Shown piece by piece: positions 51,008 through 59,068 of a stretch of DNA of 64,000 nucleotides (position 1 is its first letter; every line of letters begins with the position of its first letter). A model generated the notes under the pieces. The model was not told the DNA's origin and did not search any database. It saw nothing but the letters and a program-made list of their open reading frames with translations. This DNA is from Candidatus Moraniibacteriota bacterium (GTDB taxonomy: Bacteria; Patescibacteriota; Minisyncoccia; Moranbacterales; UBA2206): assembly GCA_003483065.1 (NCBI GenBank), contig DMWY01000008.1, forward strand, positions 2,177-66,176, read 5' to 3'. Made by a program: the position numbers and the translations under genes.

Positions 51008-51085
51008 GCCGCGTTCGTCTAGCCCGGTCAGGACGCCAGGTTTTCATCCTGGAAATCATGGGTTCGAATCCCATACGCGGTACCA
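51008..51085 (+). tRNA. tRNA-Glu (anticodon TTC)
   Basis: GCCGCGTTCGTCTAGCCCGGTCAGGACGCCAGGTTTTCATCCTGGAAATCATGGGTTCGAATCCCATACGCGGTACCA. Cloverleaf with anticodon loop TTTTCAT. CCA encoded. Terminator hairpin at 51092-51117. Confidence 0.8.
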
Positions 51086-51114
51086 AACTTGAAAACAGCC
51101 CTTGATGGCTGTTT

Positions 51115-51143
51115 TTGATTTATCGGAGGAAGGGGGGTAGAAT
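51115..51143 (+). promoter_or_regulatory. Conserved island promoter module, copy 1 (TTGATT, 17 nt, TAGAAT)
   Basis: TTGATT tatcggaggaagggggg TAGAAT GGAAGTGTTCAGT. The G-rich spacer and the first transcribed nucleotides are conserved in copies at 53095 and 53498. A second promoter (TTGCCT, 17 nt, TATAAT at 51195-51223) follows in the same leader. Confidence 0.6.
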
Positions 51144-51249
51144 GGAAGTGTTCAGTGAGGATTGGAAAAAATAAAGTTATCCACAGCTCAAAAGTTGCCT
51201 AAAATATCACAGAGTGATATAATATCATCATAACAAACTAAATAAAGTT

Positions 51250-52926: not shown

Positions 52927-53094
52927 AAAAAGGCTCCTTAGGCACCAACACCTTTCGGATCCTTTTCGTCTTTATGCATAAAATATACACCCAAATCAGC
53001 GAAATGTCAACAGTGCTTGAATAAACAATATTTAAACCTATTCATAATACACTTATTTAGACCAAATATTCCACAAAATTTATGAACATATTTG

Positions 53095-53123
53095 TTGGCT
53101 TATTGGGGGAAAGGGGGTAGAAT
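53095..53123 (+). promoter_or_regulatory. Conserved island promoter module, copy 2
   Basis: TTGGCT tattgggggaaaggggg TAGAAT AGAAGTGTTGA. Confidence 0.55.
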
Positions 53124-53200
53124 AGAAGTGTTGAATAATATCGAGAAAACAGAGAGTTTGCACCATTAATTGCGTAGCATAATTAATTTAAAATAAATTT

Positions 53201-53464: not shown

Positions 53465-53497
53465 AAAAATTCACAAAACCGCTATCACTGGCGGTTT

Positions 53498-53526
53498 TTG
53501 ATTTATTGGAGGAAAGGGGGTAGAAT
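53498..53526 (+). promoter_or_regulatory. Conserved island promoter module, copy 3
   Basis: TTGATT tattggaggaaaggggg TAGAAT GGAAGTGTTCAGT. The -35 is fused to the T-run of the upstream terminator, as in copy 1. Confidence 0.6.
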
Positions 53527-53564
53527 GGAAGTGTTCAGTAATTAGTTAAGTAACATACAAAAAT

Positions 53565-54189: not shown

Positions 54190-54444
54190 ATGTATTACAC
54201 ATATATTTTAAGGAGTGAAAAGGATAATAAAAATTATGTAGGTTATACTAAAAATTTAAAATTAAGATTTGAGGAGCATCAAAAAGGAAAAGTTGAATCA
54301 ACTAAAGATAGAAGGCCATTGAAATTGATATATTATGAAGCATATCTAAATCAGCAGGATGCGACACATAGAGAAAAATATTTAAAAACATATCATGGTA
54401 AGATGTTTCTAAAAAATCGCCTCAAATCTTATTTAACAGGGTGA
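54190..54444 (+). CDS. GIY-YIG nuclease family small protein (second copy)
   Basis: YYTYILRSEKDNKNYVGYTKNLKLRFEEHQKGK ... the GIY-YIG core with conserved R and E. Confidence 0.8.
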   Translation: MYYTYILRSEKDNKNYVGYTKNLKLRFEEHQKGKVESTKDRRPLKLIYYEAYLNQQDATHREKYLKTYHGKMFLKNRLKSYLTG

Positions 54445-54590
54445 ATAAAATCACGAGAGTAGGAAAAACCAGCTTAGCTGTCACTATTCCAATTGAGATG
54501 TATAAAGAATTAGGCTGGAAAGAAAAACAGAAGGTGGTTGTGAAAAGAGTTAGGGGTGGGGTTGAGATTAAGGATTGGAAAAAGATATAA
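54441..54590 (+). CDS. AbrB/MazE/SpoVT-like small DNA-binding protein (49 aa, GTG start overlapping the upstream stop)
   Basis: VNKITRVGKTSLAVTIPIEMYKELGWKEKQKVVVKRVRGGVEIKDWKKI matches the swapped-hairpin AbrB pattern (vrkiGnSlgvtIP.e....l....g..v). Not in the ORF track because it is under 60 aa. Confidence 0.5.
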   Translation: MNKITRVGKTSLAVTIPIEMYKELGWKEKQKVVVKRVRGGVEIKDWKKI

Positions 54591-55375
54591 GGTTATTTAA
54601 AATGGACTTATCTTTCAATATAAAATTAGCTGACAATTATACTAGCTCATCTCAAAAGATAAGAGTTTTGACTGAGGATTGGGTTGATAGGCAAGTTTAT
54701 TGTCCAAACTGCGGGAAGTTAAGTATCGACAGATATGGAAATAATAAACCAGTTGCAGATTTTTATTGTGAAAATTGTAAGGAAGAATATGAATTGAAAA
54801 GCAAGAAGGATAGTATGGGCAAGAAAATTGTTGATGGCGCGTATAGTAAAATGATTGAAAGGCTGGATAGTGTTAATAATCCGAATTTTTTCTTTTTGAA
54901 TTATAGTTTACAAAGTTACAAGGTAGAAAATTTTGTAGTTATTCCGAAACATTTTTTTGTTCCTGAAATTATTGAAAAAAGAAAACCTCTCTCGGAAGAC
55001 GCAAGACGAGCAGGTTGGGTTGGATGCAATATTTTACTTCAAAATATTCCGCAAAGTGGAAAAATATTTTATGTAAAAGACGGAAATTTTGAAAATAAAG
55101 AAGATGTTTTGAAAAATTGGCAGAGAACACTTTTCTTGAGAGAAGAAAAAGAAATTAGTGCGAAAGGTTGGCTTTTGGATGTTATGAGTTGTATTGAGAG
55201 AATAAAAAAACAAAATTTTTCCCTAGATGAAGTTTATGCTTTTGAAAAAGAATTAAAAATAAAACATCCAGACAATAATTTTATTAAGGATAAGATGCGA
55301 CAAAAATTACAGGTTTTAAGAGATAATAATTACATTGAATTTATTAGTCCTGGTAAGTATAAATTAGTCATTTGA
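54575..55375 (+). CDS. DpnI-like methyl-directed (type IIM) restriction endonuclease
   Basis: Collinear with my recollection of the DpnI family: N-terminal catalytic domain with SSQKIRVLTEDWVDRQVYCPNCG ... PVADFYCENCKEEYELKSKK ... NPNFFFLNY ... RKPLSEDARRAGWVGCNI, and a C-terminal winged-helix-like end LQVLRDNNYIEFISPGKYKL. Needs a database search to confirm. Confidence 0.5.
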   Translation: MEKDIRLFKMDLSFNIKLADNYTSSSQKIRVLTEDWVDRQVYCPNCGKLSIDRYGNNKPVADFYCENCKEEYELKSKKDSMGKKIVDGAYSKMIERLDSVNNPNFFFLNYSLQSYKVENFVVIPKHFFVPEIIEKRKPLSEDARRAGWVGCNILLQNIPQSGKIFYVKDGNFENKEDVLKNWQRTLFLREEKEISAKGWLLDVMSCIERIKKQNFSLDEVYAFEKELKIKHPDNNFIKDKMRQKLQVLRDNNYIEFISPGKYKLVI

Positions 55376-55436
55376 CAATTATCGTGAATCGATCAAAAAT
55401 TGATCAGAAATAAAAATTAATTTTCTGTTCAATTAT

Positions 55437-55871
55437 ATGAAAATTTCAAGAGAGTTGGCGATAAGAATATTAAAATATTTAGATGAGCATAAGAATTTTT
55501 ATTTTCCATTTCTAGTTATGTGCAAAGAGCACGCTGAAGGGGATGATGATTTTATAGAAATTGAACCTGAAGAATGGGAAATGATTCAGGAAGATGATAA
55601 GTATCAAACTTTTGAGTTGTGGGAAAATCTGCAAAATTTAGATGAAGAAACGCTTAAACTTTTGGCGAAAGGATTTTTAGAGAAAATTACCAGTGAATCT
55701 TTGGAGAAAAAAATAGAAAAATTAGCGAAAAAATACAGAAAAGAATGGAAAGTGGAATTGTGGGAAAGTGAAGATATTGAAGAGTTTGGGTATAATGAAT
55801 TTATAGGCGGAAAAGCAGAAGGGTGTGAGGAATGCTTGGAGTCGATAAAAAAATATGGAAAAATAGAGTAA
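55437..55871 (+). CDS. Hypothetical acidic protein
   Basis: 144 aa, Glu/Asp-rich, no motif. Sits between the DpnI-like and KAP NTPase genes. Confidence 0.35.
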   Translation: MKISRELAIRILKYLDEHKNFYFPFLVMCKEHAEGDDDFIEIEPEEWEMIQEDDKYQTFELWENLQNLDEETLKLLAKGFLEKITSESLEKKIEKLAKKYRKEWKVELWESEDIEEFGYNEFIGGKAEGCEECLESIKKYGKIE

Positions 55872-55888
55872 ATTAAAAACGATTTAGT

Positions 55889-57163
55889 ATGGCAGATGGA
55901 TTTGTAAAAAATTATAAATTATTAGAAGAAAACAGCAAGGCTGATGATCTTTTGAATATTGGTGATTTTTGCGAAAAATTTACTAAAAAACTCAATTCAT
56001 TACCTAACTCATCGATTATTGCTTTGGTTGGAAAATTTGGTAGTGGTAAAAGTACAATGTTGCATAAAATAGCAACTAATTATTTGGCCACTTACGTATG
56101 GTTTGAATTTGATGCATGGAAATATCCGGACAGAGAAAATCTCTGGGAGGGATTTATTTTGGATTGTGTTGAAAAGATCAATCCAAATCATTTTTTAAGT
56201 GCGAAAAAAGAGATTGAAGGGAAGTCTAATGATGATAAAAAAACTTTGATTAATGTCTTATCTAAAATACCGGGGTTAGCAGTATTAGAAGGGTTTAATC
56301 ACTTTCTTGAAACATCTCCAGCAAAGCGTGTAAATGATGTACAGAGGATATTTAGAGAACAGCTCGATAATATAAAAAAAGATATTTTCGTTATCATTGA
56401 AGATATAGACAGGTCAGGCGATTCAGGCGCATTCTTTTTAGAGACGCTTAAACAATTTTTAAAATCATCTAATCTCTTAAATAAAGTTGTAATAATCGTT
56501 CCAATAGCTAATGAAAATTATTACAAAAATATCGATTCATATCTAAAGTGTATTGATTATTTTGATTTTTTTGAGCAAAAAAATATAAAATTAGATAAGT
56601 TTGTGGGCGAAGTTATAGATAACTCATTGCTCAGTGGGCAATTAAATAGAAAAGGCGATAATAAATTGATTTGGAGTGGACCAAGTAGAAAAGGGCAAAC
56701 GATTAGTTTTTTAGAAAAGCTTTTTGATGAAATGCCAGAGATGAATATGCGGTTACTTAAGTTAATATTGAGAAAAGCAAATCTGGCCTATAAAAATCAG
56801 ACTTCAGATGGACACGACCCAGATTTTCGGGTTACTTTATGCATAGAAGCATCGAAATATTTCAAAATTAATGGAAAGGAGGAATTGAGTTATTTTGATG
56901 ATTTTAGAGAAAGGGGTGTTATAATCAGAGGTAACATATTTTCCTCATTCTTAATTGCAATGTTAAATAATAAAGATTCTATTGTAGGTATTGATTATAC
57001 CAACGGAAGAGAAATCAAGAGATTATTGACATCGCCCTATGATTTTAAATTTATAAAAAGGGAGGACAATGACAAAATCCAATGGCCATCATATCCCTGG
57101 AGTTATGGCAGATTTAGTGGCGACTCTGGTTTTGGTGTGGCAAGTTTTTATTGCGAATATTAA
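55889..57163 (+). CDS. KAP-family P-loop NTPase
   Basis: IALVGKFGSGKST Walker A immediately followed by FEFDAWKYPD (the KAP F-x-x-W-x-Y motif). Walker B IFVIIEDIDRS. Confidence 0.6.
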   Translation: MADGFVKNYKLLEENSKADDLLNIGDFCEKFTKKLNSLPNSSIIALVGKFGSGKSTMLHKIATNYLATYVWFEFDAWKYPDRENLWEGFILDCVEKINPNHFLSAKKEIEGKSNDDKKTLINVLSKIPGLAVLEGFNHFLETSPAKRVNDVQRIFREQLDNIKKDIFVIIEDIDRSGDSGAFFLETLKQFLKSSNLLNKVVIIVPIANENYYKNIDSYLKCIDYFDFFEQKNIKLDKFVGEVIDNSLLSGQLNRKGDNKLIWSGPSRKGQTISFLEKLFDEMPEMNMRLLKLILRKANLAYKNQTSDGHDPDFRVTLCIEASKYFKINGKEELSYFDDFRERGVIIRGNIFSSFLIAMLNNKDSIVGIDYTNGREIKRLLTSPYDFKFIKREDNDKIQWPSYPWSYGRFSGDSGFGVASFYCEY

Positions 57164-57599
57164 TTTTCTATTGAAGAAATAAAATGTATTAATCTATGGC
57201 ATATAAAGTTATGGAAAAATTTCTAAAGCAAGGATTTAAATTGAAAGAAGATATAATAAAAAAACAACATAACTGCCAAGCAACTGGATTTTGGGTGAAT
57301 CGATCTAAGGAAAGTAATTTTCTTTTGATTATGCACGAACATCTTTTTGTGTTTCAGAAATAATTCAATACATATTCTAATACGTATTAAAATACTTACC
57401 TAAATTAGTTACTTACTTTAAGTGTAAGATTAGCGCCGGAGCGCTGTAGTATCTGTATAAATAAGTGGGTGAAGTTATGAACAAACTAACCGCCGAAGAA
57501 AAAAGAGTTATTTTGGAAAAGGTAATTTAAAATTAACAAGAAAAATATGTTTATAAAACTCTATCTCATTGCCTTGCCGGTTTTTTGCTTCAGTTTTAA

Positions 57600-58278: not shown

Positions 58279-59068
58279 ATGAACAATAATGTTTTTGAAG
58301 AAATAAAAAGAATTAATGAATATCAAAGTGAATATTGGTCGTCTCGTGATTTGGCTAAAGTGTTGGGTTATTCCAGCTACGATAAATTCCTAAATGTTAT
58401 TAATAAAGCCAAAGAAGCATGTGAAAATAGTGGTCAAGTTATCCACAACCATTTTTCCCATATGGACGAAATGGTTGAAATAGGTTCAGGCGCAAAAAGA
58501 GCAATTGATACAGTATATTTATCTCGTTATGCGTGTTATTTGATTATCCAAAATTCCGATCCATCCAAAGAAGTGGTTGCTTTGGGTCAAACATATTTCG
58601 CGATTCAAACTCGAAGACAAGAAAAATCAGATCAGTTAATAGAGGATAATAAAAGATTACATTTGCGTAGTGAAATAAAAACTCACAACACATCCTTAGC
58701 TGAAGCCGCGGAAAATGCGGGAGTTAGCAATTATGGAAAATTTCAAAATTATGGATATAGGGGATTGTATGGGGGGGCTGGACGCAAATGATATTCACAA
58801 AAAGAAAGGTTTAAAAAAATCTCAAAAAATACTTGATCATATGGGGAGCGAAGAATTGGCAGCTAACTTATTTCGCGCCACTCAAGCTGATGCAAAATTA
58901 CGCAGAGAAAAAATCCAAGGCGAAATTAACGCAAATTTGACGCATTTTCATGTCGGGCAAAAAGTTCGGCGTACAATTGAAGAATTGGGCGGAACAATGC
59001 CTGAAGAACTACCATCAGCAGATGGAATATCTGAGGCGAGGACTAGAATAAAAAAGATTAAAAATTAA
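58279..59068 (+). pseudogene. dinD: DinD-like (DNA-damage-inducible protein D / Bro-N family) gene disrupted by a frameshift at a G7 tract
   Basis: N-terminal frame (58279-58791) FEEIKRINEYQSEYWSSRDLAKVLGY ... GDPSKEVVALGQTYFAIQTR and C-terminal frame (58715-59068) ...GSEELAANLFRATQADAKLRREKIQGE... are two halves of one DinD-like protein. Deleting one G in GGGGGGG (58771-58777) joins them. Confidence 0.65.

Follow-up and report, generated by a model that had tools for sequence, protein, structure and literature searches.

The window analyzed here, a stretch of 64,000 nucleotides from a Candidatus Moraniibacteriota bacterium, carries a compact block of genes around a gene of the DpnI family, namely genes for a GIY-YIG nuclease-family protein, an AbrB-like protein, the DpnI-like nuclease itself, a small acidic protein and a KAP-family NTPase, followed by the remnant of a DNA methylase gene (Table 1). 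A preliminary description of the sequence had singled out four open reading frames (ORFs) of 49, 266, 144 and 424 amino acids (aa) as a candidate defence locus; all four are present on the plus strand where they had been placed, and the locus is indeed a defence locus. The span then given, 54441-57163, does contain these four ORFs but omits the upstream GIY-YIG gene and the methylase stump. The DpnI gene had moreover been described as translationally coupled to the AbrB gene by a GTGA overlap. When the DNA is read directly, GTGA 54441-54444 instead joins the stop codon of the GIY-YIG gene to the GTG start of the AbrB gene, and the proposed coupling is unsupported because the overlap was misplaced. 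The most likely start of the DpnI gene, judged from the alignments, is ATG 54602, which corresponds to position 1 of the Pfam model and to residue 1 of DpnI in PDB and agrees with the gene callers on identical contigs. The AbrB stop codon at 54590 and this ATG are 11 nt apart, and a 16-nt overlap arises only if the longer TTG reading is used. By sequence, the locus appears to be a DpnI cassette of the known dam-replacing type, and what is new is its partner family together with a promoter built from the target site of the enzyme.

Table 1. Genes and sequence features of the DpnI locus (positions of the window).
Feature	Coordinates	Strand	Evidence
GIY-YIG nuclease-family gene, small, stand-alone, 84 aa	54190-54444	+	Pfam GIY-YIG 2.4e-15
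AbrB/MazE (SpoVT-AbrB fold) gene, 49 aa	54441-54590	+	Pfam PF04014 (MazE_antitoxin) 4.5e-7
DpnI-family gene, 257 aa from ATG 54602	54602-55375	+	Pfam DpnI and DpnI_C, PADLOC mREase_II, phmmer vs 4ESJ
266-aa reading of the DpnI ORF, open from TTG 54575	54575-55375	+	
Promoter-like element of the acidic gene	55372-55405	+	promoter scan match 55372-55400
Inverted repeat TTGATCAGAAAT-N8-ATTTTCTGTTCAA between -10 and start codon	55400-55432	+	long-spacer variant only
Acidic protein gene, 144 aa	55437-55871	+	no Pfam family; DpnI partner by locus comparison
Soluble KAP-family P-loop NTPase gene, 424 aa	55889-57163	+	PF07693
Methylase pseudogene stump ("MT2", last 55 codons)	57196-57363	+	homology to longer N6_N4-type methylases

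The genes that belong together were identified by comparison with other loci (181 fetched in all, amounting to about 2 Mb and designated by L numbers). The acidic protein had 651 homologs, the top 120 at 64-88% identity, and 80 acidic-gene loci, each from a different species, were taken and their ORFs searched with all window proteins. These loci stem from many Patescibacteria lineages, from Sulfurimonas and other Campylobacterota, and from Gammaproteobacteria. DpnI lies directly upstream of the acidic gene in 59 of the 80; a stricter recount with a DpnI profile on six-frame translations, confined to loci with at least 900 nt upstream (n = 68), gave 54 such cases and a further one with an overlap (about 81%), as well as two in which remnants of DpnI are left. 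The gap between the two genes has a median of 56 nt and measures 61 nt in the window. KAP was found in 0/80 and AbrB adjoining DpnI in 2/80 of the species-level loci, and the conserved unit is therefore DpnI plus the acidic protein, which the preliminary description had treated as a bystander. The closest relative, L009, agrees with this partition: its AbrB-DpnI-acidic segment (window 54447-55856) is 90% identical and the segment following KAP (57178-57522) 94% identical to the window, 284 bp with a small zinc-ribbon ORF stand in place of the 1.3-kb KAP segment, and the GIY-YIG gene is missing, the homology beginning at 54447. As far as the compared sequences tell, the conserved core consists of DpnI, the acidic protein and the promoter-like element between their genes, and GIY-YIG, AbrB and KAP are lineage-specific additions.

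Among the comparison loci, DpnI, the acidic gene and the methylase look fragmented under genetic code 11 in L043, L048, L049, L052, L057, L060 and L074, which are of the Gracilibacteria/Peribacteria type. Lineages of this type read UGA as a sense codon, so the fragmented genes may be intact.

The DpnI-like assignment is borne out by profile and structure databases. The window protein matches the Pfam models PF06044 (1.9e-83) and PF17726 (DpnI_C, 8.9e-32) and the PADLOC model mREase_II ("Type II methyl-directed restriction enzyme", 2.3e-117), and phmmer aligned its residues 1-254 with residues 4-255 of the solved S. pneumoniae DpnI (PDB 4ESJ) at E=1.4e-86, i.e., collinearly over the full length. 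The N-terminal PD-(D/E)XK-type domain (PF06044), the C-terminal winged helix (PF17726) and the zinc site CPNCG...FYCENC that had been proposed from the letters alone are all present: the catalytic residues E25, D53, E64 and K66 occupy the same positions as in S. pneumoniae DpnI and are identical to them, as are C34, C37, C56 and C59, the Cys4 zinc site formed by two CXXC motifs. The roles of the active-site and zinc residues are known from mutagenesis and structure (PMC3424567). On this evidence the window protein is a DpnI orthologue of full length whose active site is intact, and we consider it to be an active enzyme directed against GATC methylated at the adenine (Gm6ATC; Type IIM).

The partner of DpnI is indeed acidic, with an isoelectric point (pI) of 4.63 and 38 D+E against 22 K+R residues. 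It found no match in Pfam, NCBIfam or PADLOC profile searches, and its structure was predicted by AF2 with a predicted local distance difference test score (pLDDT) of 80.5. Its family, annotated as hypothetical and without a Pfam model, is a previously undescribed family of DpnI partners. The pneumococcal DpnI locus consists of dpnC, which encodes the endonuclease, and dpnD, which encodes a "protein of unknown function", and both alternate with a DpnII cassette (PMC4471560). By position the acidic protein is the counterpart of pneumococcal DpnD: in both cassettes a DpnI orthologue with all active-site and zinc residues in common is followed by a small, acidic protein that has two domains and a similar size and pI (153 aa and 4.59 for DpnD), and the pneumococcal cassette likewise replaces a GATC-methylating system (PMC4471560). 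In the pneumococcal-type locus L090, which was reached via the pneumococcal DpnI sequence, DpnI is followed by ORFs matching DpnD_N (PF23117) and DpnD-PcfM (PF14207), in Psychrobacter (L093) by a 66-aa DpnD-PcfM protein, and in S. panodentis by no partner gene. Despite the fact that the same Pfam library detects both domains in L090, a scan of 28 members of the acidic family found neither of them at E<=10, and hhalign gave a probability of 0.2% for the comparison of the family with DpnD, so that no homology to DpnD is detectable. The two types are bridged by a natural hybrid in L066, the N-terminal part of which is 58% identical to the window acidic protein over 128 aligned residues and residues 99-144 of which are a DpnD-PcfM domain (PF14207, 56 bits against a cutoff of 25). 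Further differences from the pneumococcal cassette are the GATC-embedded promoter within the spacer of the window, dpnC and dpnD overlapping in L090, and the nature of the replaced system, which in the window consists of broken methylase genes and not of a clean allelic cassette.

Over the 80 loci the partner is modular, the majority having an N-domain and a helical C-domain as in the window, and other forms consisting of the N-domain only, the C-domain only, the N-domain with DpnD-PcfM or the N-domain with a third domain. When alone, the N-domain has about 88 aa and the helical C-domain about 60-75 aa. The third, unassigned C-terminal domain ("FIFYTTEG(Y/F)TF...VENCQILGWG...") is fused to the N-domain in four loci (L056:7986-8492, L064:7995-8504, L071:7986-8507 and L075:978-1448). 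Four members of the family showed weak winged-helix matches (SelB-wing_3, best 1.4e-4), and the family is absent from the phage, plasmid and viral collections.

The second conserved component is the promoter-like element in the spacer. In the window it consists of the -35 hexamer TTGACA (55372-55377), which includes the DpnI stop codon TGA (55373-55375), 13 nt, a GATC at 55391-55394, the -10-like AAAAAT (55395-55400) and a second GATC at 55402-55405, the two GATC forming the palindrome TGATCAA-AAA-TTGATCA. A generic promoter scan also flagged it. GATC is present in 41 of the 45 DpnI-acidic spacers, usually twice, with about 5.6 sites expected in total, and the consensus reads TTGAC(A/T), 13 nt, GATC, then AAAAATT-GATC (long variant) or AA(N)-GATC (short variant). 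The distance from the hexamer to the first GATC is exactly 13 nt in 31/32 spacers, the lone exception being an artefact of the regular expression. With a 17-nt promoter spacer, the -10 hexamer (AAAAAT or AANGAT) begins right after the first GATC, its two critical bases (A at position 2, T at position 6) being retained, and the second GATC follows or overlaps it. Of the 181 fetched loci, 53 contain the full motif, each a single time and invariably at a junction of the DpnI-acidic type, and it occurs nowhere else in the approximately 2 Mb; the window has one match as compared to none in 100 shuffles, and the motif is absent from ordinary Dam-DpnII-methylase operons. It also stands upstream of whichever non-acidic gene follows DpnI (L026, L073 and L130) and ahead of orphan acidic genes without DpnI (L017, L019, L064, L077, L078 and L088).

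Both spacer variants are palindromic, the short one as TGATC-AAA-GATCA. In the short variant, with a spacer of 34 nt between the genes, the ATG lies 4-8 nt past the second GATC, and a leaderless mRNA is therefore predicted. The long variant has in addition the inverted repeat TTGATCAGAAAT-N8-ATTTTCTGTTCAA, with 13 predicted pairs over 11 loci, which is absent from the short variant; only one pair is compensatory (A-U to G-C, in three sequences), so that the sequences fit an RNA hairpin and a DNA operator equally, and the repeat would be either a hairpin of the 5' untranslated region or a second operator. A GATC that overlaps or abuts the -10 makes promoters Dam-sensitive, as in IS10 pIN and the Tn5 transposase promoter, where adenine methylation can alter promoter use. 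The window element shares this placement of GATC, and by analogy we infer that its promoter responds to GATC methylation. It differs from the IS10 and Tn5 promoters in having two GATC in a palindrome of fixed geometry, in a host that is presumably Dam-free, and in serving the partner gene of an enzyme that cuts methylated GATC.

The origin of the locus is indicated by the 55-aa ORF behind the KAP gene. In 12-13 other loci, homologs of this ORF lie shortly after the acidic gene; they have a common C-terminus, and their N-terminal side is broken off at differing points. Among 1.84 billion representatives searched there were 277 relatives, most of them fragments of the C-terminal part. Because the longer homologs carry motif I DPxxGxGTT followed by motif IV (T/L)HPPY and match Pfam PF01555 (N6_N4_Mtase) in circularly permuted order, the ORF is taken, on homology, as the 3' stump of a permuted N6_N4-type DNA methylase of about 250-330 aa (MT2). 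On the other side of the cassette, six loci (L042, L044, L047, L069, L072 and L084) have a truncated Dam immediately adjoining the start of DpnI (PF02086, model positions 1-160 of 253). A predicted ancestral operon of Dam, endonuclease and methylase was tested by a metagenome scan for the permuted methylase (80 loci, L095-L174). The methylase is full-length in all of them, and 53 have an equally complete Dam upstream of it in the same orientation. The slot between the two methylases, which holds DpnII (PF04556, 1.6e-95) in 18 loci, MutH/Sau3AI-like nucleases in 10 and DpnI itself beside a truncated Dam in L130, L131 and L166, is a hypervariable nuclease bay. The methylase stump, the truncated Dam and the presence of DpnI in the slot together indicate that the cassette overwrote a GATC-methylating restriction system. 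Other contents of the slot are GmrSD (9 loci) and DUF6996/DUF6997 (at least 8) as well as PDDEXK_11-like and DndB-like proteins and a 213-aa family without assignment.

The ancestral scaffold resembles the two-methylase operons of the DpnII/MboI type, MboI having a methylase-nuclease-methylase (M-R-M) arrangement, in that Dam, a DpnII or MutH/Sau3AI-like nuclease and a second methylase follow each other on one strand. Unlike these operons, the window lacks the endonuclease and both methylases save for the stump, and the second methylase differs from DpnA in being an N6_N4 enzyme of circularly permuted order with the unusual motif IV HPPY. In L169, L170 and L173, a methylase of about 255-270 aa with the motifs DPMVGGGTT and THPPY stands apparently intact and divergent beside DpnI, and both genes have a common control region (L169:1585-1730, L170:2717-2862 and L173:4944-5071) that contains two GATC clusters with a hairpin and T-run between them.

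A further precedent is the Neisseria drg gene at the leuS/dam locus, with GmeATC specificity (PMC4269198, PMC516771). As in the window-type loci, a gene of the DpnI family, the Pfam name of which is "Dam-replacing", occupies a former dam site and has left a dam remnant; in the gonococcal locus L089 the C-terminal remnant of Dam directly follows drg. The window itself keeps only the 3' stump of the second methylase and has no Dam remnant. Neisseria drg (NmeBII-type) differs in being only 46% identical to the window DpnI and in lacking a partner gene and a GATC promoter element, its GATC pair lying within the coding sequence. Records of the L089 type come from the plasmid collection, in which these chromosomes had been entered as plasmids. 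About 0.6 kb past drg and the Dam remnant, L089 (Neisseria gonorrhoeae) also has a fragment resembling the C-terminus of a beta-class N6_N4 methylase (L089:4407-4727, "…DPFMGSGTT…").

The earlier supposition that the host does not Dam-methylate its own GATC fits what the 64-kb window contains, i.e., 155 GATC sites (observed/expected 0.73), no ORF of at least 60 aa with the methyltransferase motif IV (D/N/S/H)PP(Y/F/W/H), and a dead methylase stump. Over the whole window the palindromic tetramers ACGT (observed/expected 0.49), GGCC (0.57) and CATG (0.64) are rarer than GATC, which hints at past or present pressure by other restriction systems.

The AbrB/MazE fold of the 49-aa protein holds, with PF04014 scoring 30.1 bits against a cutoff of 24.7. 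AbrB-like genes are present in 9/160 loci, often at the 5' edge of the operon, namely before DpnI in L009 and L012 and before an intact Dam in L120, and L137 has the order GIY-YIG, AbrB, intact Dam. Compared to L009, the window AbrB is short of 9 N-terminal residues at the point where the GIY-YIG gene abuts. Based on these contexts, AbrB is not a general partner of DpnI. A toxin-antitoxin module of the AbrB/MazE type was rejected since no cognate toxin is adjacent: no MazF/PemK, Doc or PIN toxin adjoins AbrB, its neighbours being GIY-YIG and DpnI, and the NCBIfam doc_partner match reached 18.5 against a cutoff of 55.9. No operator for AbrB was identified at the locus, and a role as controller-type regulator of the operon is compatible with, and faintly suggested by, its position.

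The assignment of the last complete gene to the KAP family of P-loop NTPases is upheld by PF07693 (33.8 bits against a cutoff of 20) and by both the Walker A (GKFGSGKS) and Walker B (FVIIEDIDR) motifs. Unlike tmn and many KAP proteins, the window KAP has no transmembrane helices inserted in the P-loop domain (maximum 19-residue hydropathy 1.15), and its residues 113-142 appear in the structural model as a low-confidence soluble insert. The recurrence of the family in defence islands, mentioned in the preliminary description, was seen in five of six homolog contexts read, the sixth being a non-defence one. In L175:5001-6284 and L178:5001-6272 the homologs, 55-60% identical to the window KAP, occupy the slot between hsdS and hsdR of a Type I operon that PrrC fills in EcoprrI; one homolog stands beside a TaqI-type pair, one right after a Shedu-type SduA_C gene (L179), and one in an island with a resolvase, beside a Type I system and a ParB-methylase. 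Given the diversity of these contexts, KAP is a modular companion of restriction and defence loci and not DpnI-specific; its place in the window, after the acidic gene and before the methylase stump, is due to a lineage-specific exchange. KAP-type defence ATPases include tmn (bioRxiv 10.1101/2022.08.21.504612) and QatA, and the window protein is of the same family. Its PADLOC matches to QatA (1.4e-7, residues 106-237) and PifA (7e-5) are weak and partial and no QatBCD genes are nearby, and an assignment to a QatABCD or PifA system was rejected.

Two small families without a Pfam match recur just downstream of the acidic gene, a double-CxxC zinc-ribbon protein of about 70-80 aa (L009:4133-4375, L018, L028, L031:8461-8676, L041 and L075), the place of which is taken by the KAP gene in the window, and a protein of about 72 aa with the pattern "KP(T/I)(I/V)F.I(S/T)(K/E)EE...LACVEGD..LAKDIR" (L022, L031:8738-8953, L064, L071 and L075).

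As the probable, though by no means secure, explanation of the whole we propose a DpnI cassette with a DpnD-like, methylation-controlled partner in an overwritten GATC restriction-modification (R-M) system. DpnI would cut incoming Gm6ATC DNA, be it phage or plasmid DNA from Dam+ hosts or that of self-methylating phages, and the host would be immune to its own DpnI because it lost its GATC methylases. Because the two types are mutually exclusive, the cassette would have spread by overwriting DpnII-type systems, much as in the case of the DpnI/DpnII cassettes of pneumococcus and of the dam-replacing gene of Neisseria. The acidic protein would be an accessory factor akin to DpnD, with transcription that depends on whether its own promoter is methylated. 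It may modulate DpnI, probably as its inhibitor or as a safety factor, and thereby curb self-cleavage as long as GATC remains methylated, e.g., just after the cassette has replaced a methylating system, which is the establishment problem of any DpnI cassette. KAP could be a switch ATPase of modular type that accompanies restriction loci and perhaps provides another layer of defence, and AbrB may repress the operon in the manner of a controller. The more general proposal that the acidic protein and its relatives, DpnD included, are safety factors controlled by methylation state, with a GATC promoter that reads the Dam state and sets the level of the DpnI modulator, is offered tentatively and seems to us doubtful at present.

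Several observations weigh against this explanation. The part of the acidic protein in the control of DpnI is putative; its predicted model found no informative fold match, the family is not detectably similar to DpnD, and in 11-13 of the 68 loci the acidic gene stands without DpnI, on which its function may hence not strictly depend. The absence of Dam is established for the 64-kb window only, and the missing Dam remnant upstream of the window DpnI belongs here as well. The apparently intact second methylase beside DpnI in L169, L170 and L173 conflicts with the simple assumption that MT2 makes Gm6ATC, and a live methylase of a GATC system next to DpnI is paradoxical unless it has another specificity, acts on single strands or is tightly repressed. 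Since GATC is normally unmethylated in a Dam-free host, a methylation sensor would mostly be idle; a methylation effect could run in either direction, and the palindrome could be the operator of a dimeric DNA-binding protein.

This last point leads to an explanation that we regard as unlikely, in which the acidic gene and the GATC palindrome form a unit of their own, regulatory or selfish, that is tied to DpnI by nothing but common mobility. The palindrome would then be bound by the acidic protein, the AbrB-like protein or the winged helix of DpnI, and the acidic protein might be, e.g., an autoregulated transcription factor or a DNA mimic aiding horizontal transfer. That both spacer variants are true palindromes, that the long one contains a second long inverted repeat, that the motif precedes orphan acidic genes in six loci and that four members of the family have weak winged-helix matches would all be in accordance with an operator. 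However, the palindrome is made of GATC, the target of DpnI, in both variants despite their different spacing, and it overlaps the -10 because it is fixed 13 nt from the -35 hexamer; a protein with a pI of 4.6 is an unlikely DNA binder, the element precedes other genes too when those follow DpnI, and the family's absence from phage, plasmid and viral collections speaks against a unit of this kind. The proposal that the cassette is mainly selfish and addiction-like, DpnI killing descendants that regain a GATC methylase and blocking replacement by DpnII-type systems while the acidic partner tunes it, appears improbable to us. It would account for the repeated occupation and destruction of Dam/MT2 operons and for the spread of the cassette across distant phyla, and the enzyme specificities do make DpnI and GATC methylation mutually exclusive; yet it is compatible with defence and hence not an exclusive alternative, and pneumococcal DpnI restricts methylated phage and plasmid DNA (PMC3573125). 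The preliminary description's combination of AbrB, DpnI, acidic protein and KAP into a single new four-gene system is very improbable; in such a system AbrB would be the antitoxin or regulator, and KAP the effector or sensor. Although the genes are co-oriented and tightly packed, each of their families is compatible with defence, the block is preserved across the strain cluster L001-L008 and KAP homologs lie within other restriction loci, the species-level counts for KAP and for AbrB beside DpnI, the exchange of the KAP segment in L009 between flanks that are still 90-94% identical, the association of KAP homologs with unrelated R-M types and the lack of a toxin partner for AbrB at the locus do not support it.

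Although DpnI is among the most used enzymes of molecular biology, to our knowledge no function has been assigned since 1986 to dpnD, the gene that accompanies it in its native cassette. The small acidic partner appears as a widespread and modular feature of DpnI cassettes over distant phyla, and one family of such partners is a large, overlooked one whose gene has a promoter made from the enzyme's own target sequence, which offers a handle on the control of methyl-directed nucleases and on the way in which they replace incompatible methylating systems. The establishment problem of a DpnI cassette is the opposite of that of classical R-M systems. If the proposed methylation control held, a methyl-directed cassette could overwrite a GATC-methylating system without killing the recipient and possibly respond to a phage or plasmid that brings a Dam methylase, i.e., an epigenetic sensor would be wired to a Type IIM enzyme; we know of no description of such a control principle for methyl-directed restriction. 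In addition, the loci document a turnover of DpnI/DpnII-type cassettes in Patescibacteria, the defence biology of which is little studied, and flag a KAP ATPase subfamily in the PrrC-like slot of Type I operons.

The entire gene block is repeated in near-identical contigs of one strain cluster (L001-L008). It lies within a mosaic of mobile-element-type genes that begins at a tRNA-Glu gene (51008-51085), extends from 51008 to about 59100 and comprises KilA-N, NYN, metallophosphoesterase and Bro-N genes as well as two small GIY-YIG genes with a mutual identity of only 31%. The stretch varies among close relatives, with AntA instead in L004 and other inserts in L009; an att-like repeat of the tRNA-Glu end was looked for in the window and not found. 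The Bro-N gene is apparently frameshifted, its ORFs 58279-58791 and 58715-59068 overlapping in different frames, and gene callers made the same split in related contigs. A 65-nt cassette, composed of a terminator-like hairpin followed by the promoter-like TTGATT-17 nt-TAGAAT, is spread through the variable region in three copies at 65-86% identity (51092-51156, 53072-53136 and 53475-53539), and a second repeated promoter-like sequence, a 23-mer (TGATATAATATC...), is located at 51215 and 58242 ahead of two genes of the Bro-N/KilA type.

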